Shown: piece by piece, positions 7,270 to 38,553 of the stretch
Layout of the letters: every line of letters starts with the position of its first letter
Position numbering within the stretch: the first letter of the stretch is position 1
IMG/VR virus record: IMGVR_UViG_3300042503_000110
Span: 1 to 64,000 of that record
Reading direction: 5' to 3' (one strand)
Origin: a virus
Length of the DNA: 64,000 nt
The notes under the pieces: generated by a model
The model's input: only the letters and a program-made list of their open reading frames with translations
Databases searched by the model: none
What the model was told of the DNA's origin: nothing
Translations under genes and position numbers: made by a program

Positions 7270-7563
7270 ATGATTAAGATTCAAGACGTTGTAGTTCCGA
7301 CCAAAGGAACAGGAAAATACTTTAACCTTCTTGCGTTGAACTTTCCGCCTAACCCTACATCAGTAAGTTTTTACTGGTCTGTGTACGAAGAAACGCAAAA
7401 CGGACAAACTGAAGAAGGAACTCCTACACTAGGTCCTGGTAAGTTAATCTTAGAAGGAAACATTACTATGAATCAAGAAACCTATGCAAATTGGGGCACA
7501 GACGATGAGTTTGTAATTGACTGGGCTTTGAACGAACTAGGATTCACTAAAGTAACCGAATAA
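7270..7563 (+). CDS. Small acidic protein, probable tail fibre assembly chaperone
   Basis: Directly follows the fibre gene; C-terminal Y..WG.DD....DW...ELG pattern. Confidence 0.55.
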   Translation: MIKIQDVVVPTKGTGKYFNLLALNFPPNPTSVSFYWSVYEETQNGQTEEGTPTLGPGKLILEGNITMNQETYANWGTDDEFVIDWALNELGFTKVTE

Positions 7564-7583
7564 ACAAAATAAAACCAACCTAT

Positions 7584-7856
7584 ATGTCTACTACAAAAAT
7601 CGACTTAAACAAAGCTATCACAGATCTTGATGGCAAAGAAATTGAAGGTTCTAACCTTGGTAAACTTGTAGCTCAAATGCTTATCACCGCAACTAAAGGT
7701 GATGCTTTGAAGTACATGTCTTGGGCACTTAAATTGCATGCAGGAGAAAGTCTTGAACTAGACCCTAGCGACAAAGACTTGCTTAAGAACTTTATCAAAG
7801 ACCACGAGCAGTTGACTATCCTTTCTAAGGCACAAATGTTAGAATGTTTTAACTAA
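7584..7856 (+). CDS. Hypothetical protein, possible tail assembly chaperone
   Basis: Clean ORF with a DLDGK...WA.KL..G..LELD.SD pattern; has the AAAACCAACC leader. Confidence 0.65.
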   Translation: MSTTKIDLNKAITDLDGKEIEGSNLGKLVAQMLITATKGDALKYMSWALKLHAGESLELDPSDKDLLKNFIKDHEQLTILSKAQMLECFN

Positions 7857-21824: not shown

Positions 21825-21838
21825 TTTAAAACCAACCA

Positions 21839-22231
21839 ATGAAAGTAGCAAGAAAATACGAATCGGGCGTGCAACTTCATCAAGCATACATAGATATTTT
21901 ACTACGTCTGGCAGGACATAGATTGTCAGATTTGTACACTAGTATTCTAGCGCACAGCTCTTATTATGGCACAATTAACAAAGAGATTAAAGACTCTATT
22001 GCAGAAAGAAATCAGACTTCTGCGCAGGTTATCTCTAACGCAATCACTCGGTTACGTAAATTAGGGCTGTTAGAAAAGAATATAATAAACAAGAAACTTT
22101 CTCCTATAGCTAGAGATAATGCTTCTATTACTTTGTTATTGTCTTTGAAGGAATTGGCCCCCGTAGTATTGAATACAACATCTCCTGAATCTAATATAAC
22201 ATCTAATGTTAAGTTCGAAACGGCACACTAA
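21839..22231 (+). CDS. Winged-helix HTH DNA-binding protein
   Basis: IAE...TSAQVISNAITRLRKLGLL. Confidence 0.7.
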   Translation: MKVARKYESGVQLHQAYIDILLRLAGHRLSDLYTSILAHSSYYGTINKEIKDSIAERNQTSAQVISNAITRLRKLGLLEKNIINKKLSPIARDNASITLLLSLKELAPVVLNTTSPESNITSNVKFETAH

Positions 22232-22763
22232 CGAAATCAAATTCAACACGCATGGATTCTTTTCTTCTGTAGCTAGAAAGACAGGATATAGTGTGTCAGA
22301 TGTTAATACTGTTTATACTTGGTACATAAACAAAAGTTTAGAAGAGGCGCAGAATACTCCTGCATGTAAGGTAAAATTAAAAGGATTAGGTGCTATGAAG
22401 TTTAGTCCTGGTCTTTCTATTCGTAATCTCACAGGTTTTATTGCTGGACTAGAGACAGCAGTCAATGAGTTTTTAGATCCTGAGTTAGAACCTAAGGTTG
22501 CGTACAGTATTATAGTTGCCAAACATAAGGTTCTTTTAAATGCCCTTTATTCTTTTAGAGAAAGAATAACGAAACTTAAAGACACAGGTTTTGTGAACGA
22601 AACGTATCACATAAACAAAATGACTCGATCAGAACAACTGGAAAACCAACTAAACCAAATATATGAATCTATTCAAAGAATACCTGAGTATCAGCAAAAA
22701 AGGACTTCAGAACGCGGACAAGATTTTACATGGACTGACGAACAAGGTAGCAAACCGTTTTAG
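22206..22763 (+). CDS. HU/IHF-like DNA-binding protein with C-terminal extension
   Basis: VARKTGYS..DV..V...........KVKLKGLGAMKF. Confidence 0.6.
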   Translation: MLSSKRHTNEIKFNTHGFFSSVARKTGYSVSDVNTVYTWYINKSLEEAQNTPACKVKLKGLGAMKFSPGLSIRNLTGFIAGLETAVNEFLDPELEPKVAYSIIVAKHKVLLNALYSFRERITKLKDTGFVNETYHINKMTRSEQLENQLNQIYESIQRIPEYQQKRTSERGQDFTWTDEQGSKPF

Positions 22764-23180: not shown

Positions 23181-23396
23181 ATGCAAACCAACCAACCGAA
23201 GTCTTCTAGAAGGGAAAAAGAAATCATTCAACCCTCTAAAACATTCCAAGATTCTTTGTTCTCTGTAACAAAGGTTTTTTGGAAAGCTGGTTATCAGTAT
23301 AGCCAGAAGGGAAAGAATGAAGATTTTTATGCTACTCTTCTAGAGGACTTTATGAATTTATCCTACCAAGAATTTTTAACCAAATATGGCGAATAA
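23181..23396 (+). CDS. Hypothetical protein
   Basis: Coupled ORF overlapping the next start. Confidence 0.6.
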   Translation: MQTNQPKSSRREKEIIQPSKTFQDSLFSVTKVFWKAGYQYSQKGKNEDFYATLLEDFMNLSYQEFLTKYGE

Positions 23397-23702: not shown

Positions 23703-25715
23703 ATGCATTTAGACAGTCCAGAATTTTTAATTAACGTAAAGTCTTTGCCTGACCCAGAGTCAGCAGAGTATACTGCGTTTTGGCAAAATGAGGACAAAAA
23801 GATAAATGAAGGAGTAACTATAAATGGTTTCTACTTTTCTCCTTTTGTATACTGGCATTTAAATTTTGGGGCCTTATACATTGACGAAAAGGTAGGAAAT
23901 AGAAATATAAGGAAACTAGGTAAGCCCCAGTTATGGGATACATACCTAGAAGTGGATGATGCGATTTACCGCGCAGAGAATCACCCAGATGGAAAGAAAG
24001 GTCTGGTGATAGTAGGTAGTCGACGTATTTCAAAAACCATTCTTACATCTTCATACATTGCCCATAAGGCAATTACACTTCAGGGAGGGGACAATCTAAT
24101 TTCCGCTCTAAACCAACCTGACTTGAATAACACTACTCAAGCCGTGGATCTTATTTTGCGTAACCTCCCTGATTATTTTAGATTCCCCCGTATTGAAGAC
24201 GACTGGAAACGTCAAGTAACTTTAGGTTACAAAGACAAAAAGTCCAACGCAAGACACGAGTGGTCTAAGATACATGTAAGAAACTTTGACGAAGGGAACA
24301 ATACGGAAGCAGCAGCAGGTCTTACTCTATCCTCTTTCATGCTTGAAGAAGCAGGTAAAGGCAGAATCTTGAACTGCTTGGCTGCGACTATCCCATGTTT
24401 TGACTCACCTTATGGATGGCGTTGTTCTCCTATTGTAATTGGAACATCGGGAGACATGACTAAGGCAGGAGACTTAGAAGAACTTTTTAATAACCCTGAC
24501 GCATATAACTTTCTTCCCGTAGCTGTAGAAGAGTCTGGAAAGTCTTACGGACTATTTGTCCCAGGAACAAAGTCTCTTAAAGTACCTAAAGAACCAACTC
24601 CTCTTGGACTTTACCTAGAGAAAGAAGATCCTTCTGAACTAGATAACATTACTATTTGGGTAGCCAACCAAGACAAGGGTAAGGAAATGATTATAAAGAA
24701 CAGGGAGCAAGTTAAAAAAGCCTCTGGTCTTGAAGCTTATCTAAAGGAGGTCATGTACTACCCGCTCACGCACGAGGAGTGTTTTATGGAAATGTCACAG
24801 AACATTTTTCCTGTAGACCTTCTTCAGGAGCAATTACAGAAACTTGTAGCAAATGAAGTACGTGCAGATTTTGTAGAATTGTACGTAAAGCCTGATGGAA
24901 AAGTAGGACACAAGTTCACGGATAAAAAGCCTGTAGAAAACTTTCCAACTAAACCAGCAGATAATCTAGAAGGCGTAACCCAAATATGGGAGTATCCTAT
25001 TCTAGATGCACCTTATGGACTTTATACAGCAGGGACTGACCCATACAAACAATCTCAAGCACAATACTCTACTTCATTAGGATCTACTTACATTTATAAA
25101 AGAGTTCATAATCTTTCAGGTGAAGGTTGGCAGAATATTGTTGTGGCCGCATACACAGGTCGTCCTAAGAAGATTGACATGTGGTACGAGAATACCAAGA
25201 ACCTATTAAAATTCTATAATGCCAAGAGTCTTTGTGAAAACATGGACTATGGTTTTATTCAACACTGCGTAGAGAAAAATGAAGGTGCACGTATTCTAGA
25301 ACGTACTCCATCATTCTTAACGGACATCCACCCCAACTCTATGGTAAACCGTGACTACGGAATACACATGACCAAAGAGATTAAGGCTTATCTACTAGGT
25401 CTTATTATCGAGTATATAACTGAAGTCATTGATGTAGAGCGTGATGCAGCAGGAAATATTACAAAAGAACGCTTAGGTGTAACTAGAATTTTAGATCCCC
25501 TTTTGATAAAAGAATTAATAAAATATACACCAAAACTCAATGTTGACCGTATTATTGCATTTGGTTTGACATTGGCTATGACTCGAAGTCTTTCTAATAA
25601 AATTACCATCCATAGTAATGCAGAGGACGACAGGATTAGAGAATACTTTCAAACCAAAAAAACTTCTAGTCCATTTAGGATTGGAGGATCAACACCATTT
25701 TCAAGATTTAGATAA
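23703..25715 (+). CDS. terL: Terminase large subunit
   Basis: Walker A-like GSRRISKT, Walker B FMLEEAG, GTSG, nuclease AG.DPY and N.DR..A; crAss-like organisation. Confidence 0.9.
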   Translation: MHLDSPEFLINVKSLPDPESAEYTAFWQNEDKKINEGVTINGFYFSPFVYWHLNFGALYIDEKVGNRNIRKLGKPQLWDTYLEVDDAIYRAENHPDGKKGLVIVGSRRISKTILTSSYIAHKAITLQGGDNLISALNQPDLNNTTQAVDLILRNLPDYFRFPRIEDDWKRQVTLGYKDKKSNARHEWSKIHVRNFDEGNNTEAAAGLTLSSFMLEEAGKGRILNCLAATIPCFDSPYGWRCSPIVIGTSGDMTKAGDLEELFNNPDAYNFLPVAVEESGKSYGLFVPGTKSLKVPKEPTPLGLYLEKEDPSELDNITIWVANQDKGKEMIIKNREQVKKASGLEAYLKEVMYYPLTHEECFMEMSQNIFPVDLLQEQLQKLVANEVRADFVELYVKPDGKVGHKFTDKKPVENFPTKPADNLEGVTQIWEYPILDAPYGLYTAGTDPYKQSQAQYSTSLGSTYIYKRVHNLSGEGWQNIVVAAYTGRPKKIDMWYENTKNLLKFYNAKSLCENMDYGFIQHCVEKNEGARILERTPSFLTDIHPNSMVNRDYGIHMTKEIKAYLLGLIIEYITEVIDVERDAAGNITKERLGVTRILDPLLIKELIKYTPKLNVDRIIAFGLTLAMTRSLSNKITIHSNAEDDRIREYFQTKKTSSPFRIGGSTPFSRFR

Positions 25716-28218: not shown

Positions 28219-28248
28219 TTGAATTAATTTTTTTAAACATTAATTTTG
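28219..28248 (+). promoter_or_regulatory. Bacteroidota sigma promoter of the capsid operon
   Basis: TTG 28219-28221, 19-nt spacer, TAATTTTG 28241-28248. Confidence 0.7.
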
Positions 28249-28267
28249 AACTAACCAAACCAACCAC

Positions 28268-29440
28268 ATGATAACAAATGACAATCCACTAGAAAGTCTA
28301 GAGTTCTTAGATTTACTATCAGGAGAAGATCCAATTGATTCTCCCGCCTATGACCCCAACAAGAATATCGCACCTGATATTCTTTCTGGCAAACCATTAA
28401 CTCCTCCAGATGATAATTTGGATGACGAAGATGAAGATGACGATACATCTAGTTCTAACGATGAGCCACCAGCTCCCGCACAGAAAACTCAAAGTCAACC
28501 TCCTGCAAATGAACCTGCAGATGAGGATGAACCTTTAGATGATGATGAGGACGATGATGACATCAACTACTTTGAAACCTTTGGAAAAGGATTAATCAAA
28601 GCAGGAATGTTGGAAGTAGGAGAAGGAGAAGATCCAGAAAAGATTGAGTGGACTGAAGAAACTTTCTTAAATAAGATGGAAGAAACCATTGAGAAGAAAG
28701 CTTGGGATACTTTAGAAAGCATTGCTTTGGAAACTTACGGAGAAGCAGGAGTTAAACTTGTTGAGGACTTATTTATAAATAAAGTTCCAGTTAACGAGTA
28801 CTTGACTATGTTCCGTAACGAAGAGGTTGTAGCTAACATTGACTTGAACAGTGAAATGAATCAAGAAAGAGTTGTACGTCTCTACCTAGCAAAGACAGGA
28901 ATGGAAGAAGAAGAAATCGACGATCAGATTGCTTATGCAAAAGATAACGAAAGACTTCCTTCTTACGCTAAAAAGTATCACGGAAAACTGCTTGAGAGAA
29001 TGGAGTATGAGCGTCAAACTATGGCACAAGAAAGTGCTGCTAGAGTAGAGGCCGCTCAACAGAAAGAACAAGAGCGTCAAGAGTTGTATGCTAATGTTCT
29101 TGAGAAATCCATTAAGGACGGATCAATTGAAGGATATCCTATAAACGAAAACTCTGCTGGGGAGTTGTTTGATTTTGTTTTAGCTAAATCAGTACAATTA
29201 CCTAACGGACAAAAAATCAGCGAATTTGAATACAAACTAGCTGTAATGCGTCAAGAGGATCCATCTAAATTTTTAGCTGTAGCAAGACTAGTTCAGAACG
29301 GCCTAGACTTGAGTCCAATTAAAAAGAAAGGTGTATCTGAAGAGACAAACTCAATTTTCAACGAATTGAGAACCAAAACTAAAAAGCCCGCCAAGAGCAA
29401 CAAGTCTGACCAAGACATGTTCTCTAGGTACTTTAAATAA
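28268..29440 (+). CDS. Probable capsid scaffolding protein
   Basis: Very acidic D/E/P-rich N-terminus and helical C-terminal part; lies between portal and MCP as in crAss-like phages. Confidence 0.7.
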   Translation: MITNDNPLESLEFLDLLSGEDPIDSPAYDPNKNIAPDILSGKPLTPPDDNLDDEDEDDDTSSSNDEPPAPAQKTQSQPPANEPADEDEPLDDDEDDDDINYFETFGKGLIKAGMLEVGEGEDPEKIEWTEETFLNKMEETIEKKAWDTLESIALETYGEAGVKLVEDLFINKVPVNEYLTMFRNEEVVANIDLNSEMNQERVVRLYLAKTGMEEEEIDDQIAYAKDNERLPSYAKKYHGKLLERMEYERQTMAQESAARVEAAQQKEQERQELYANVLEKSIKDGSIEGYPINENSAGELFDFVLAKSVQLPNGQKISEFEYKLAVMRQEDPSKFLAVARLVQNGLDLSPIKKKGVSEETNSIFNELRTKTKKPAKSNKSDQDMFSRYFK

Positions 29441-29460: not shown

Positions 29461-31005
29461 ATGCCAAATCAAAACATTCCAAGAGTCAATGGGCGAGTGA
29501 TAGCTAACGCCCACATGACTAGTTCTTACTATTCCAAAAATGGTTTGAACAAACTGACCGACAAAAACTTTGTCGAAACTATGTTGCGTACTAAGCCTGA
29601 CCAGTATGACAAAATGATGATTCGTTTGTTTACAGACACTCGTTTGTATTCTAACGATTTGATCGATCTTGTTATGAAGTCTGGCAAGCCCTTCATGGTA
29701 AACGATCCTAATGGTGTTTTCACCTACAAGATTAAGAAACGCGCTGAACTTCCTAAAGTTGTAGCTGCTTACTCTGCTGGTACTACTTCAGCTTTGCCTG
29801 CAAAGCCTGGTATCGACGGACAAGAGTTTGACATTATCCTTGACAAGCAAGTATTTGCTGTTAACGATATTATCACTTCTCACCGTTACGAGCAAGAGGT
29901 TCAAGTTCAGATTGTGTCTGAAGGTGAGCGTTTTCAAAATGCTTTCCGTTATCGTTGCCGTGCTGCTGGTGCTAACTCTGCTGATTTCGTAAGCTCACGC
30001 TTCTTGACAGTAGGGGTTGAGTACTTCAAAGTTGGTAACGTATTGGGTGAGTTCTCTACTAGCTTCTCTGGTTTAGGCTTGTTCGATGGTCACTTAGAAG
30101 TTATGGCTGATGTTCTTAACCAATATGGTGTAGAGCATACCATCACTGACTGGGCTGATGCTACCAAATTAGGTGCACAAACTGACGCTTCTGGTAATCC
30201 TTTGGATATCACTTACTACTCTGTAACTGATCCTAACGCTGAAGGTGAGAAAACCAAAATCGTTGGTTGGGAGCCTACAGTATCTAGATTGCTTCGTATG
30301 GAGATGATGCGCATGCGTGCGAACATGTTGATGTGGGGTCGTCAAGGTAACACTAAAGATGAAAAAGGTCGTCCAACTCGTTTGAAGCCAGGTTTGTGGC
30401 AGCAATTGCACTTGGGTAACGTTATCTACTATGATCGCGGTCAATTCAGCTTGAACCTTTTGCGTTCTGCAATCGGTGACTTGTTCTACAACCGTGTGAA
30501 AGTATCTGAGCGTTATGTAAAAGTATACACTAACCGTGCAGGTATGGAATTGGCTTCATCTGCAATGCGTAAAGACTTCAACAACTCTAACTTCATGTTG
30601 TCTGCTGACAAATTCATGGATGGTAAAGATCGTTTGAAGCAAGGTTACGCTTTACAGTTTGACCACTTCATGACTACTGAAACTGGTCCTGTTGAGTTCA
30701 TCGAACTTGAACAATTGAACGAGCATGCTACTTTCTTGGAATTAGGTCCTAATAAGAAAGTTCCACCAATTTTCATCATCATGGACGTGAGCAACGAAGG
30801 TGGCTCTAACATCCGCGAGGTGAAATTGTCAACTCGTCCTAACATGTACTACCAGTACATCCCTGGTTCAGTAGGTTTCGGAAGTCAACAAACTGTAATT
30901 GCTAACAAAGATCCTTATAGCACTTACATCATGAAAGACTTCTGCGGTATCTTCTTGGAAGATCCAACCAGAACTGTAATCATTAAAGAATACCCACGCC
31001 TCTAA
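29461..31005 (+). CDS. Major capsid protein
   Basis: 514 aa after the scaffold; strongly biased high-expression codons (CGT, GGT, TTC, AAC); crAss-MCP-like ending G+.+.DP.+; followed by a hairpin. Confidence 0.85.
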   Translation: MPNQNIPRVNGRVIANAHMTSSYYSKNGLNKLTDKNFVETMLRTKPDQYDKMMIRLFTDTRLYSNDLIDLVMKSGKPFMVNDPNGVFTYKIKKRAELPKVVAAYSAGTTSALPAKPGIDGQEFDIILDKQVFAVNDIITSHRYEQEVQVQIVSEGERFQNAFRYRCRAAGANSADFVSSRFLTVGVEYFKVGNVLGEFSTSFSGLGLFDGHLEVMADVLNQYGVEHTITDWADATKLGAQTDASGNPLDITYYSVTDPNAEGEKTKIVGWEPTVSRLLRMEMMRMRANMLMWGRQGNTKDEKGRPTRLKPGLWQQLHLGNVIYYDRGQFSLNLLRSAIGDLFYNRVKVSERYVKVYTNRAGMELASSAMRKDFNNSNFMLSADKFMDGKDRLKQGYALQFDHFMTTETGPVEFIELEQLNEHATFLELGPNKKVPPIFIIMDVSNEGGSNIREVKLSTRPNMYYQYIPGSVGFGSQQTVIANKDPYSTYIMKDFCGIFLEDPTRTVIIKEYPRL

Positions 31006-31021: not shown

Positions 31022-31044
31022 AGGGGGAGCCGAAAACTCCCCCT
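31022..31044 (+). terminator. GC-rich hairpin after MCP (leaky terminator or mRNA stabiliser)
   Basis: AGGGGGAG-ccgaaaa-CTCCCCCT, with no proper U-tract. Confidence 0.55.
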
Positions 31045-31081
31045 TACAGGGACATAGATTAAACAAAAACAAAAACCAACC

Positions 31082-32020
31082 ATGACTAAAGAATTATTAA
31101 AGGGAGTGCGTATAATCCGCCCTTACAAAAAATCGATCTCTAATCCTCGCACATTAGAAGGATCATTAGCCCAAAACGGCTACAACTTTATCCCAGGAAC
31201 TGCTCGAAAGTTTTATCCGAGAGTAGATTCAAGGGGTGTAATAAGAACAGGACTCGATGAAAACTCTCCGAAGTTGAAAGGAATCCTGGACTTAAAAACA
31301 AGGGAACAAGAAACTGCACGAGTTAAGCAATTAAAAGAGTACTACGAATCTTTGCTTGACGAGTCACTTGAACCTAACAGTACGTTCTATGACGAAATAA
31401 AAGAAAATGGAATTAACCTCGAGGACGGAGATAACATTTTTAATATGGACAATCCAAGAGATGCAGTAAACTTTTACTGGTTGATGGAGACAGAAATGGT
31501 TGCACCTAGTTTAGATGCAATTGAGTCTGGCGAAACTGACGGATCTATGGTAAGATTTTACGTATTTGATGGAACCGTTGAGACTAAGAGTACATTTGAA
31601 CGCAAGAAGCGTATTAACAGTGCGATTGCGGCTTTAGATAAAATGAGCCAAATCAAACGTAAGAAAGTTCAAAAGCTTATTGGCTTAGGTCTTTCTAATA
31701 CAGCTTCCGAGGAAGAAGTATACAATGCAGTGGATGAGTACTTAAGAACTCCTTCAACTGCTTTGGGACTTGATCCTATAGAAAACTTTATGAGAATCAT
31801 GAATTACAGTGATGACTTGTTAGATGTCAAATCTTTGATTCGCGATCTTGTAGACACAAACATTGTCCGTGTAAAAGGTTCTGTAGTTTACGAAGGTGAG
31901 CATGTGTGGGCTAAATCAGCAGAGGAGTTTGAACTTCTTTTGGTTGACCCTAAGAACACCGTAGAATACGATTCTTTCAAAGACAAGTTAAAACAAAAAC
32001 TAAAGATTAATACCTTATAA
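31082..32020 (+). CDS. Conserved crAss-like protein downstream of MCP (gene 75-like)
   Basis: Position after MCP; RTGLD motif; about 310 aa. Confidence 0.6.
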   Translation: MTKELLKGVRIIRPYKKSISNPRTLEGSLAQNGYNFIPGTARKFYPRVDSRGVIRTGLDENSPKLKGILDLKTREQETARVKQLKEYYESLLDESLEPNSTFYDEIKENGINLEDGDNIFNMDNPRDAVNFYWLMETEMVAPSLDAIESGETDGSMVRFYVFDGTVETKSTFERKKRINSAIAALDKMSQIKRKKVQKLIGLGLSNTASEEEVYNAVDEYLRTPSTALGLDPIENFMRIMNYSDDLLDVKSLIRDLVDTNIVRVKGSVVYEGEHVWAKSAEEFELLLVDPKNTVEYDSFKDKLKQKLKINTL

Positions 32021-34095: not shown

Positions 34096-34120
34096 GGGGG
34101 AGGTAACACTCCCCCTTTTT
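34096..34120 (+). terminator. Rho-independent terminator
   Basis: GGGGGAG-gtaaca-CTCCCCC-TTTTT. Confidence 0.8.
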
Positions 34121-34596: not shown

Positions 34597-34622
34597 AGGG
34601 GAGAGAAATCTCCCCTTTATTT
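34597..34622 (+). terminator. Rho-independent terminator
   Basis: AGGGGAGA-GAAA-TCTCCCCT, then TTATTT. Confidence 0.7.
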
Positions 34623-35859: not shown

Positions 35860-37779
35860 ATGGGACATTGTACTGATTGTTACGGATCTTCGGTTGTAGC
35901 CCCTTGCAGTGATCAAGGTTGCTTATCGACAAACTTTGGTAAGTGTATAACTTACTCAGGTGTAGACTTATTTTGTGCTACAGGCGCAATAGGAAATATT
36001 AGTGTTGGAGGAACTGCTGTGGTTCCTGGGACAACTACTACCCACGCAAACATCTCTGGTACTAACATTACAGGTACTGGTACAGGTGCTACATTCGACG
36101 TAGTTAGAACAGCAGGTTCTAATACGTACAGTGTAATAGTGGCGAACAGAGGTTCTGGGTATGCTGCGCTTAATCAAATTAGAATTTTAGGTACTAGTGT
36201 AGGTGGAGCATCTCCAGCTAATGACATCACTATTACTATTTCTACGTTGAATGCAGTTATTGCTTCAGGAGCTAATCTAGACACTATCATCACCACCTTC
36301 CACAATGCTTTGTGTTCTGGAATAAGTGGTGCAGGAGGATTAGATTACTCTACCTTAAACTACTCTTGTCTTCGTCAGAATGGAGTGCTTACTGGTATTG
36401 GTACTCCAATTACTACTGAAGCTCAATTTGTTCAAGCCGCTGCTGCTGCAATGTGTGCACTTAACACTACACTGCAGGACTACGATGGACAAATTATTCT
36501 AAACAACATTGAAGGAAGTATCCCAGGATTACCTGGTACTTACAATCTAGACCAGTATTTGACTTCTCTTACTTCTTATGTAAACACCATTAGAGGTTAT
36601 GTAGAGATGAATACTGTCTTGGACAATCCTTGCGTAGGTTATGCGTTTACTACTAAACCTAGTACCGATATAATTGCTGATTATATTAACTGGATTACAA
36701 CTAACATGTGCGGAATGTATACTTCATTAAATGGAAGTATTACCAGCACAACTACTACTGCAAATAACTTAAAAACTTATATTGCAGGTGCAGGAACAAT
36801 TCCTTCAGTTGTAAATACATCTACACTTCCTGGAGGTTCTACTACTAGTAATGCTTCAGCAGCGATTACATTGCTTGTTTCACAAGTTGCGTCTATCAAT
36901 ACTGCTTTATCTAGTGTACCATCAGCAAACTACGCATTAACTTGGGCTACTTGTTTCCCAGGATCTTTCCCAGCTAACTCTGTATTCAAGAGTCAAACTT
37001 GGAACTACTCCAATACAGCGACTACTTTACAAACTCAGTTAGACAGAATCGTAGCAGTACTTTCAAGACTTAATATTAAGTTTGACGCTACCTTATTTAC
37101 CGTAGATGCTACGTCTAGTTGTGGTGCTACAATCGGACTTCAGTCAGGAGTTGCATTTACTCCTGCTAGTTTGAATGCTGCTGTCTTGAATGACTTAGGT
37201 GATGTAACAACTTCATCTCTTGTTAATGGAGACTTCTTGACTTACGATACAGGTATTTGGAAAAACAAAGTAGTTACTGTTAAAATCAACGGTTCTACTG
37301 CAAATGTTACTAAGACTGTAAGTGCGAGTGAGATTAGCTTTGACTTAGCAATCACAAGTGCTACTCCAGCTATCTATCCTCTTGCGCCTTTCAACACTGT
37401 AGAGTATACTGTTGCTAATGCTCCAAGATTTCCTATGGGAGGTCAACCTTTTCCTTATGCTGTGTTGCATGGTAATATGGTTACTCTTCATGGAGTATTG
37501 CAAATGAATACAAGTAGTTTTAGCTGGAACCATCTTGGAACTAAGCTGATTGCTACTCTTCCTGCTCCTGTTAGACCTCTTACTACGGATGTTTACTTTA
37601 ACGTAGAACTTTACGTTAAAGTGGGTGCGAACTACTCACCTACGTACACTAGAGCTACAGGACAAATCACACCTACTGGAAACTTAATTCTTCACTTAAT
37701 GAATCCTGCTGGAGGTATTGTACTTACGTCAAGTGATTTAATTGAAGTCTTAATCGGAGGCGTTACCTACGCTATCTAA
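35860..37779 (+). CDS. Tail fibre/spike protein
   Basis: N-terminal C.DC...CITYSG; G.GATF.V...GSGY repeat module; L.DLGDV motif; C-terminal gp37-C-like ..TLP...RP domain. Confidence 0.7.
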   Translation: MGHCTDCYGSSVVAPCSDQGCLSTNFGKCITYSGVDLFCATGAIGNISVGGTAVVPGTTTTHANISGTNITGTGTGATFDVVRTAGSNTYSVIVANRGSGYAALNQIRILGTSVGGASPANDITITISTLNAVIASGANLDTIITTFHNALCSGISGAGGLDYSTLNYSCLRQNGVLTGIGTPITTEAQFVQAAAAAMCALNTTLQDYDGQIILNNIEGSIPGLPGTYNLDQYLTSLTSYVNTIRGYVEMNTVLDNPCVGYAFTTKPSTDIIADYINWITTNMCGMYTSLNGSITSTTTTANNLKTYIAGAGTIPSVVNTSTLPGGSTTSNASAAITLLVSQVASINTALSSVPSANYALTWATCFPGSFPANSVFKSQTWNYSNTATTLQTQLDRIVAVLSRLNIKFDATLFTVDATSSCGATIGLQSGVAFTPASLNAAVLNDLGDVTTSSLVNGDFLTYDTGIWKNKVVTVKINGSTANVTKTVSASEISFDLAITSATPAIYPLAPFNTVEYTVANAPRFPMGGQPFPYAVLHGNMVTLHGVLQMNTSSFSWNHLGTKLIATLPAPVRPLTTDVYFNVELYVKVGANYSPTYTRATGQITPTGNLILHLMNPAGGIVLTSSDLIEVLIGGVTYAI

Positions 37780-37853
37780 AGATATTGGCGGGAATTTAAA
37801 GGTTGGTTTTCCTCGTCTGATGCTGAAATGAGCCTAGGTGACTAGGCTCTTTT
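37780..37853 (+). ncRNA. 3' UTR / candidate 3'-derived sRNA carrying the anti-leader GGTTGGTTTT
   Basis: GGTTGGTTTT (37801-37810) is the exact complement of the AAAACCAACC leaders and is followed by a terminator. Confidence 0.35.
37830..37853 (+). terminator. Rho-independent terminator
   Basis: GAGCCTAG-gtga-CTAGGCTC-TTTT. Confidence 0.8.
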
Positions 37854-37867
37854 AGTTTAATATAAAC

Positions 37868-37897
37868 TTGACTAAAAATGAAATTTAAGTATATTTG
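37868..37897 (+). promoter_or_regulatory. Bacteroidota sigma promoter
   Basis: TTG 37868-37870 (in ACTTGACT), 19-nt spacer, TATATTTG 37890-37897. Confidence 0.75.
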
Positions 37898-37911: not shown

Positions 37912-38553
37912 ATGTTAACTAACGGAGAATTAATAGCAAGAGTTAAAAACGCTAACAAATTTGTTAGTGATGATGACGTTATTAGCGATAGGTTCATCTA
38001 TGATTTGCTAAAAGCAAAGGCTTCTGTCCTAGTTAAACGGGAACTAAATCTTCGTAAATTATTAGCTTCAGATAACGTTTATCAAGCATACGAATGTATC
38101 TGTTTAATTGAGGCTCCTGGTGCGGAATGTGACTTAGGGTGTAATATAAGAAGAACTAAAAAGAAACTGCCTAAGATTGAAGAAGGTCTTTATTCCTACT
38201 TTATTCAGGGAGTGTTTAATACATCTAATTCTGAAGAACTTTTTCCTACTACTATTCGCGATTTTATTAATCACGGTAGACTTCGTATTAAGACTCCTAA
38301 GAAGTTTTATACGATACGTAACGGCTATCTTTATGTACTTGATCCCGATGTAGAATCAGTAAACATGTACGCATATTTTACAGAGTCTATAGAAGACATA
38401 GATGGAGTAGAATGTTTGAGCATGTACGACAAAGAATTTAAGATAGCATCTTATCTTATAGATCCTTTGGTTCAATTAGTAAACCAGGAGTTAATTAACT
38501 ACCATAAATTACCAGTTGAGCAAGAGGATAACAACAGAGATGAACAAATATAA
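37912..38553 (+). CDS. Tail ring protein (R2-like)
   Basis: SDD...S.R.I, RT...LP and NGYLY motifs of crAss ring proteins. Confidence 0.7.
   Translation: MLTNGELIARVKNANKFVSDDDVISDRFIYDLLKAKASVLVKRELNLRKLLASDNVYQAYECICLIEAPGAECDLGCNIRRTKKKLPKIEEGLYSYFIQGVFNTSNSEELFPTTIRDFINHGRLRIKTPKKFYTIRNGYLYVLDPDVESVNMYAYFTESIEDIDGVECLSMYDKEFKIASYLIDPLVQLVNQELINYHKLPVEQEDNNRDEQI

Follow-up and report, generated by a model that had tools for sequence, protein, structure and literature searches.

What does it mean that a short A/C-rich sequence, AAACCAACC, recurs directly in front of the start codons of several genes of a phage, while its only minus-sense copy in the genome (37801-37809) is placed at the end of the late structural operon, after a stop codon and ahead of an intrinsic terminator? 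The original prediction for this locus regarded the leaders as a translation-initiation tag and the inverted copy as an RNA that feeds back on the tagged genes. We followed up this proposal in a stretch of 64 kb (the window), the first part of a virus record that consists of one contig of 78,728 bp, and in its relatives.

The phage and its host

As judged from its gene content, the phage is crAss-like, since the capsid gene and the tail ring protein 2 gene gave family matches (Table 1), with capsid and tail ring proteins in conserved order and synteny kept. All the large genes lie on the plus strand. A nucleotide search of a phage collection gave no match and IMG/VR scans with the single proteins P0080 and P0065 returned nothing new, while the segment 36500-39000 was found, among public sequencing runs, solely in lake and freshwater DNA metagenomes, with no RNA run among them. 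The record measures 78.7 kb, and related IMG/VR genomes rated 80-100% complete (G003-G007) measure 95-122 kb; the record may be incomplete.

The promoter pattern of Bacteroidota (cTTGACt, 18-19 nt, TAtaTTTG) appeared at 12 intergenic sites located 4-61 nt 5' of start codons, at most of them at a distance of 23 nt or less, so that the host is very probably a member of Bacteroidota and many of the mRNA leaders would be very short. Several mRNAs appear nearly leaderless, with the promoter 4 nt before the ATG at 1028 and 5 nt before the ATG at 7270. Translation in Bacteroidota starts without Shine-Dalgarno pairing and, to our knowledge, Hfq is absent from this phylum. Contigs of distant relatives have been binned in Sediminibacterium, Cytophagales and other metagenome-assembled genomes (MAGs), not all of them Bacteroidota; two of these contigs, L172 and L175 (112 kb and 59 kb), fall in Sediminibacterium bins, a weak host lead for the wider lineage, in the direction of Chitinophagaceae.

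Table 1. Positions of the genes, promoters, leader motifs and RNA elements discussed in the text
Feature	Position	Strand	Sequence or remarks
Bacteroidota-type promoters, window	1016, 1567, 7257, 8261, 13630, 21817, 28241, 37890, 49513, 60523		Intergenic; found by pattern
Bacteroidota-type promoters outside the window	69116, 75099		Intergenic; found by pattern
Leader of gene 7584-7856 (90 aa)	7571-7581	+	AAAACCAACC at 7571-7580; 11 nt complementary to the loop; 2 nt before ATG
Leader of gene 21839-22231 (130 aa)	21828-21837	+	AAAACCAACC; 10 nt complementary to the loop
Possible leader of gene 22663	22640-22650	+	GGAAAACCAAC; 12 nt before ATG
Copy inside 71-aa ORF 23181-23396	23185-23197	+	AAACCAACCAACC; at +5 to +17
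Leader of gene 28268-29440 (390 aa, directly upstream of capsid gene)	28257-28265	+	AAACCAACC; 9 nt complementary to the loop
Capsid gene	29461-31005	+	Matches to phrog_11589 and PF23898
Leader of gene 31082-32020 (312 aa)	31072-31081	+	AAAACCAACC; 10 nt complementary to the loop; abuts ATG
Upstream gene, fibre-like, variable (639 aa)	35860-37779	+	3'UTR carries the element
Hairpin H1	37787-37817	+	5' arm 37787-37794; 14-nt loop 37795-37808; 3' arm 37809-37817 with one bulged U
Anti-leader	37800-37812	+	AGGTTGGTTTTCC; core GGTTGGTT (37801-37808) inside the H1 loop
Hairpin H2, intrinsic terminator	37822-37856	+	Core stem 37830-37849; U-run 37850-37853; extended lower stem
Bacteroidota-type promoter of next operon	37868-37897	+	TTGACT, 16-nt spacer, TATATTTG
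crAss tail ring protein 2 gene	37912-38553	+	PF25702 CrAss_Ring_2, 1.7e-17

A leader motif shared by several genes

The 9-mer AAACCAACC occurs six times on the plus strand and once on the minus strand of the window, against 0.51 copies expected, and seven matches were reached by none of 100 shuffled sequences; the remaining 14.7 kb of the 78.7-kb genome contain no copy. Four of the plus copies stop 0-3 nt 5' of an ATG (genes 7584, 21839, 28268 and 31082, named after their first nucleotide). The predicted coordinates of the leader copies and of the anti-leader were all correct, and the anti-leader was confirmed to lie just before a terminator, formed by the hairpin at 37830-37849 and TTTT. The list of copies was right for the four leaders and had missed two further plus copies, at 23185-23197 and 24110. 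Among the variants also listed, the one at 22640-22650 is present, and those before 52468 and 23386 are weak, the latter being moreover unconserved in relatives.

The two missed copies differ in standing. That at 23185-23197 is a likely extra target, because the nucleotide motif is kept in orthologs even though the reading frame differs in one clade. The copy at 24110 was ruled out as a target, being intragenic and coding for a conserved N-Q-P peptide with synonymous variation. Gene 22663 is a possible lineage-specific target, as the motif at its leader appeared in few close relatives only.

In front of 21839 the motif starts 3 nt after the -7 promoter box (21817-24) and constitutes nearly the whole 5'UTR, and in front of 28268 it begins 8 nt after the -7 box (28241-48) and again fills essentially all of the 5'UTR. 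No promoter adjoins the leaders of 7584 and 31082, gene 31082 standing directly downstream of the capsid gene and of the terminator of the latter. Overall, the position of the motif follows the ATG (0-8 nt upstream, or +5 in an ORF) and not the promoter.

The functions previously assigned to the tagged genes (mostly scaffold, chaperone and DNA-binding factors) turned out to be largely unsupported. The products of 28268 and 31082 gave no sequence match in Pfam, PHROG or PDB and no fold match. The 28268 product has an acidic disordered N-terminus of about 100 residues followed by long helices, one of them of 55 residues, and the 'scaffold' leads obtained from Atlas were weak, so that a scaffold-like nature suggested by the predicted structure should be taken as a weak lead. 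A fold was confidently predicted for the 31082 product, with no structural counterpart, and the 21839 product showed a sub-threshold MarR_2 hit (E = 0.0035). Gene 7584 is clade-specific, its ortholog missing in five relatives.

A two-hairpin element at the 3' end of the late structural operon

The 84 nt that follow the stop codon of the fibre-like gene 35860-37779 fold into two hairpins (-28.6 kcal/mol, z = -4.1). The first one, H1, starts 8 nt after the stop codon and consists of an 8-bp stem with one bulge and a loop that holds GGUUGGUU; it is separated by a 4-nt linker from H2, whose 8-bp core stem with five G-C pairs, followed by TTTT, was recognised as an intrinsic (Rho-independent) terminator both by a terminator scan and by folding. 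No ORF covers 37800-37812. Orthologs of the upstream gene occupy the same place at 28-46% identity, and the operon that begins after the promoter downstream of H2 opens with the tail ring protein 2 gene. In all lineages only 1-8 nt separate H1 from the upstream stop codon, the sequence AAGATAT in between being conserved in several clades, and a terminating ribosome would overlap the 5' arm of H1. No family of Rfam 15, C4 included, was matched at its gathering threshold; the best candidate, SpF41_sRNA, scored 20.7 bits (E = 0.7), where 52 would be required.

No promoter motif was found between the -7 box at 28241 and H1 (37787), and hence the element would constitute the 3' end of read-through late transcripts beginning at or before gene 28268. 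Three G+C-rich terminator hairpins are located within the late structural operon (31024-31049, 34096-34115 and 34597-34616), with no promoter after them. One follows the capsid gene and the others follow two further genes, an arrangement which suggests that graded read-through may set the stoichiometry of the late proteins.

The hairpin loop alone was folded against all 55 initiation regions, and six of them (7584, 22663, 31082, 21839, 23181 and 28268) reached -13.3 kcal/mol or lower, the next best being -10.7; none of 1000 shuffled loops fitted the initiation regions as well. The duplex with the 7584 leader (-15.2 kcal/mol) was the best in the genome, and together with the clade-specific nature of this gene it suggests that genes may be enrolled simply by gaining the leader. 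A duplex scan of the whole region with the stem included produced many spurious matches and was uninformative. The duplex of the H1 loop and 3' arm with 28518-28541 (-28.3 kcal/mol, 250 nt inside gene 28268) was probably a chance match, unconserved in seven relatives.

Conservation of the element

A search of IMG/VR with the capsid protein gave 49 loci at 81-98% identity. The element appeared at the same syntenic place in all 44 loci that cover the site, namely those reaching the ring-protein gene, and it was also present in all the close metagenome contigs. The core GGTTGGTT is invariant in 24 aligned variants and present in all 44 loci, while the loop flanks, the stems and the linker vary, and all variants fold alike into two hairpins. 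Across the alignment 90% of the structure cells are paired, a value that falls to 35-52% when the partners are slid, and in eight pairs both positions have changed; for H2 the corresponding values are 94% of cells paired and seven pairs changed on both sides. The G-U pairs of the stems are formed solely in the plus sense.

A covariance model found exactly one copy of the element per genome and detected it also in L162 (capsid identity 42%, E = 8e-6) and L050 (66%, E = 0.015). The most diverged versions (L133, L172 and L175) were missed by the model and recognised by eye and folding only. In these three and in L050, the H1 stems have entirely different sequences and are still paired; stem arms of distant relatives read GUUCAUGGG/CCUUUGAAC, CAAUGUUG/CAACAUUG and AAAUCUUG/CAAGAUUU. 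Recognisable versions of the element extend down to 35% capsid identity, and to the same limit the tagged genes remain syntenic with the capsid gene and the element. In every clade, a leader of the ACCAACC type precedes the orthologs of 21839, 28268 and 31082.

A pattern scan of IMG/VR confined the element to this phage group, other matches being due to chance. The cultured crAss-like Flavobacterium phage FpV4 contains neither ACC-rich leaders nor such a hairpin, and the system is thus lineage-restricted.

Co-variation of loop and leaders

Loop and leaders change together in several lineages. The loop/leader pairs read, by lineage, GGUUGGUUGUCUGU/ACAGACAACCAACC, AUUGGUUUU/AAAACCAAU, UUUUGAUUGGUU/AACCAAUCAAAA and UGGUUUUU/AAAAACCA, the fourth being weaker. 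In clade Z the loop GGUUGGUUGUCUGU faces the leaders ACAGACAACCAACC (14 nt, 21839 ortholog) and CAGACAAACCAACC (28268 ortholog), with a duplex of -27.6 kcal/mol within the clade versus about -16 kcal/mol across clades. L050 has the loop UUUAUUGGUUUU and the leader AAAACCAAU-AUG at two orthologs, and in its full genome a 14-nt match, AAAACCAAUAAACC, lies 1 nt before the ATG of a 70-aa ORF 67 kb away. In L162, with the loop UUUUGAUUGGUU, the sequence ACCAATCAAAA occurs three times on the plus strand, always in a 5'UTR and among others at both of the orthologs that flank the capsid gene, and its single inverted copy is the one in the loop, against 0.017 expected. The matches are shorter in other distant relatives: L133 (52%) combines the loop UUUGUGGUUUUU with AAAA(A)ACC-AUG leaders in a weak match of 7-8 nt, and L172 and L175 (35%) combine the loop UGUUGGUUUA with AAACCAA-type leaders over 7-8 nt. 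The predicted pairing takes in the A of the AUG in L050 and L133. A second shared leader motif, AACTACAT, was observed at capsid-flanking genes (L172:8696 and 11719; L175:8703; L173:795 and 3696), at most 4 nt from the ATG and mostly abutting it; it reads ACTACGT in one L172 leader and is not complementary to the hairpin loop.

When the loops were permuted against the leader sets of 12 lineage representatives, the diagonal sum exceeded the mean by 4 SD (p about 5e-4). Since the lineages are related, it is the number of independent events that counts, and we estimate about three clear co-variation events and a weak one. Leader mismatches showed no enrichment of wobble-compatible transitions (64 transversions versus 19 transitions), in a comparison confounded by indels, which dominate.

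The central claim of the original prediction, that leaders and anti-leader form a functional complementary pair, thus stands up to the co-variation of relatives in several lineages, as far as sequence comparison can tell. Every relative with the leader motif also displays the complementary element, in a hairpin loop next to a terminator, and no case was seen in which the leader was kept and the complement lost; the distant relative L173 (36%), which has no such loop, has no such leader either.

A candidate antisense RNA and the alternatives

The structure, its conservation, the complementarity and the co-variation of loop and leaders are the observations from which we propose that the element is a 3'UTR-borne antisense RNA which pairs with initiation regions, most likely repressing them late in infection; we assign to this reading a probability of roughly 0.6. 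This figure and the gradings given below to the other explanations are matters of judgement and do not derive from a discriminating test. From the sequence, the architecture is that of a base-pairing antisense RNA. According to our proposal, the untranslated segment with which the late structural operon ends (37787-37856) would act as a conserved regulatory RNA of about 70 nt, in which H1 would present the G/U-rich GGUUGGUU(UU) in its loop, while the terminator H2 would both end and protect the RNA. The loop would pair with the A/C-rich (A)AAACCAACC of five or six phage mRNAs (7584, 21839, 23181, 28268, 31082 and perhaps 22663), where this sequence would make up most of a very short 5'UTR or the first codons. 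The RNA would have to accumulate, either cut out as a fragment or within the full-length mRNA, and to pair with the leaders in vivo, the duplex most likely blocking the access of the 30S subunit or the ribosome and lowering translation. The target mRNAs have no Shine-Dalgarno sequence and would rely on an unstructured leader, so that a duplex only 0-3 nt from the AUG would most likely keep the 30S subunit from binding. Likewise, because the RNA is complete only after the three upstream terminators (31030, 34096 and 34597), it would act late. This would amount to negative feedback late in infection, directed at the first part of the RNA's own operon as well as at other units, which together would form a small regulon of assembly and regulatory genes. 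We speculate that the terminating ribosome might transiently open H1 and expose the seed.

Several observations count against the antisense reading, among them the lack of enrichment of wobble-compatible transitions noted above. No promoter or cleavage site from which a separate small RNA could arise was found at the element. In clade Y, the most populous one, the contiguous match spans just 7-9 nt, because the leaders carry an extra A (AAACCAAACCA) that is uncompensated by the invariant loop. Finally, in clades W, X and Y the own-clade pairing was no better than the cross-clade pairing.

The same pairing could also have another outcome: target mRNAs might be stabilised or activated through protected 5' ends, or the loop might form a cis link between 28257 and 37801 on a transcript of about 9.6 kb. 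All the co-variation evidence fits this explanation equally well, the mRNAs of 21839 and 28268 practically begin with the motif, and the 28268 leader and the anti-leader can share one transcript, as no promoter intervenes between 28241 and 37787. We nevertheless consider it unlikely. Action in cis would leave most targets unexplained, as they belong to no fewer than three transcription units, one of them at a distance of 30 kb (67 kb in L050), and three intrinsic terminators stand between 28268 and 37787; in sRNA action, pairing at or over the AUG is usually inhibitory.

More improbable still, the motif might be a double-stranded DNA operator near promoters, recognised by a phage protein such as the weakly MarR-like 21839 product, with the copy at 37801 as an inverted site and all sites evolving together with the protein. 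Co-variation of all copies in both orientations would be equally expected for such a site, two of the copies lie 3 and 8 nt downstream of -7 boxes, and the 21839 product, with its sub-threshold hit, would be encoded behind a leader that itself bears the motif. These points have to be weighed against the fact that in every lineage the sole inverted copy sits in an RNA hairpin loop beside a terminator, even where the stems are wholly different, and that the G-U pairs of the stems point to an RNA structure in the plus sense. In addition, the site is non-palindromic, it tracks the ATG instead of the promoter, and at 7584 and 31082 it is not beside a promoter at all.

We give slightly less credit yet to the possibility that the leader is a lineage-specific translation enhancer and the loop an unrelated 3'-end stability or protein-binding element, their complementarity arising from composition and descent. 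Both sequences are compositionally simple, and the short pairing in clade Y, together with the lack of own-clade advantage in clades W, X and Y, would agree with this view. Composition and descent would hardly account for lineage-specific matches of 11-14 nt that include the non-repetitive ACAGAC, AAUCAAAA and AAUAAACC (expectations of 0.02 or less), nor for the failure of 1000 shuffled loops to fit as well, the permutation result, or the joint loss of both features in L173. Pairing of the leader with 16S rRNA was rejected, since the best complement in the 16S rRNA of a Sediminibacterium MAG, which holds a distant relative and may not be the host, was an internal one of 6 nt (TGGTTT), the 3' tail of this rRNA reading ...GGCTGGAATACCTCCTTT.

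Returning to the antisense RNA, a further step would be to regard the A/C-rich leader as an 'address label', which recruits ribosomes to near-leaderless mRNAs in a host without Shine-Dalgarno pairing and at the same time subjects them to one phage RNA, acting as a global timer of the regulon. We advance this only as a tentative and rather doubtful extension. If it were true, the tag/anti-tag system would be ancient, as it is kept to 35% capsid identity, and new genes, such as 7584 or the 70-aa ORF of L050, would be enrolled just by getting the leader.

Comparison with known regulatory RNAs

By analogy, the systems closest in working principle would be c4 of phages P1 and P7, CI of the satellite phage P4 and the 3'UTR-derived sRNAs of enterobacteria. 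The c4 RNA (immI of P1/P7; Rfam C4) and CI act on the immunity and antirepressor genes of temperate elements and depend on processing by RNase P. As is proposed for the present element, they are small structured phage RNAs whose exposed loops pair with at least two repeated sequences at or near ribosome-binding sites, and they are cut from or carried on a transcript shared with their targets. Here, the 28268 leader and the element can share a transcript and the loop would pair beside the AUG, with most targets located in other units. In contrast to c4 and CI, the phage is crAss-like and apparently lytic, its putative target genes are small or belong to the assembly module, and the RNA is at the 3' end of an operon, shares the operon terminator and matches no Rfam family, C4 included.

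The enterobacterial CpxQ, DapZ, SroC and MicL are cellular, Hfq-dependent RNAs released by RNase E or produced from internal promoters. They resemble our element in lying between a stop codon and the mRNA's own terminator and in having a conserved seed and several targets at initiation regions. The phage element is likewise non-coding with a conserved structure, and offers a conserved, predicted single-stranded seed whose complementary target sites are conserved or co-vary. It differs in that no internal promoter was found and that the seed is placed in a hairpin loop and not in a 5' single strand.

The GibS-type sRNAs of Bacteroides are chromosomal, have metabolic targets and act at initiation regions lacking Shine-Dalgarno sequences. 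They share with the phage element the Bacteroidota context, in which pairing to unstructured A-rich initiation regions could plausibly block ribosomes. The two are unrelated in sequence, and what is proposed as the target here is a leader specific to the phage and common to several genes, which accounts for almost all of the 5'UTR. The OOP RNA of lambda and sar of P22 are phage RNAs that control phage genes by base-pairing, as is proposed here; they are cis-encoded, fully complementary transcripts from the opposite strand, whereas the element described here is sense-strand and trans-encoded, with a seed of 9-14 nt and several targets.

Implications for crAss-like phages

Neither for crAss-like phages nor for phages of Bacteroidota did literature searches retrieve a description of a regulatory or small RNA. 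The element also serves as a sharp marker of this freshwater lineage in genome sequences, and the natural co-variation series offers a ready-made set of compensatory 'mutants'. If the proposed regulation is real, this phage group, about whose gene regulation hardly anything is known, would possess a compact post-transcriptional regulon, and one that works in a host phylum without Shine-Dalgarno pairing and without Hfq. It would also show a phage enrolling new genes into late control by means of a 10-nt leader alone.
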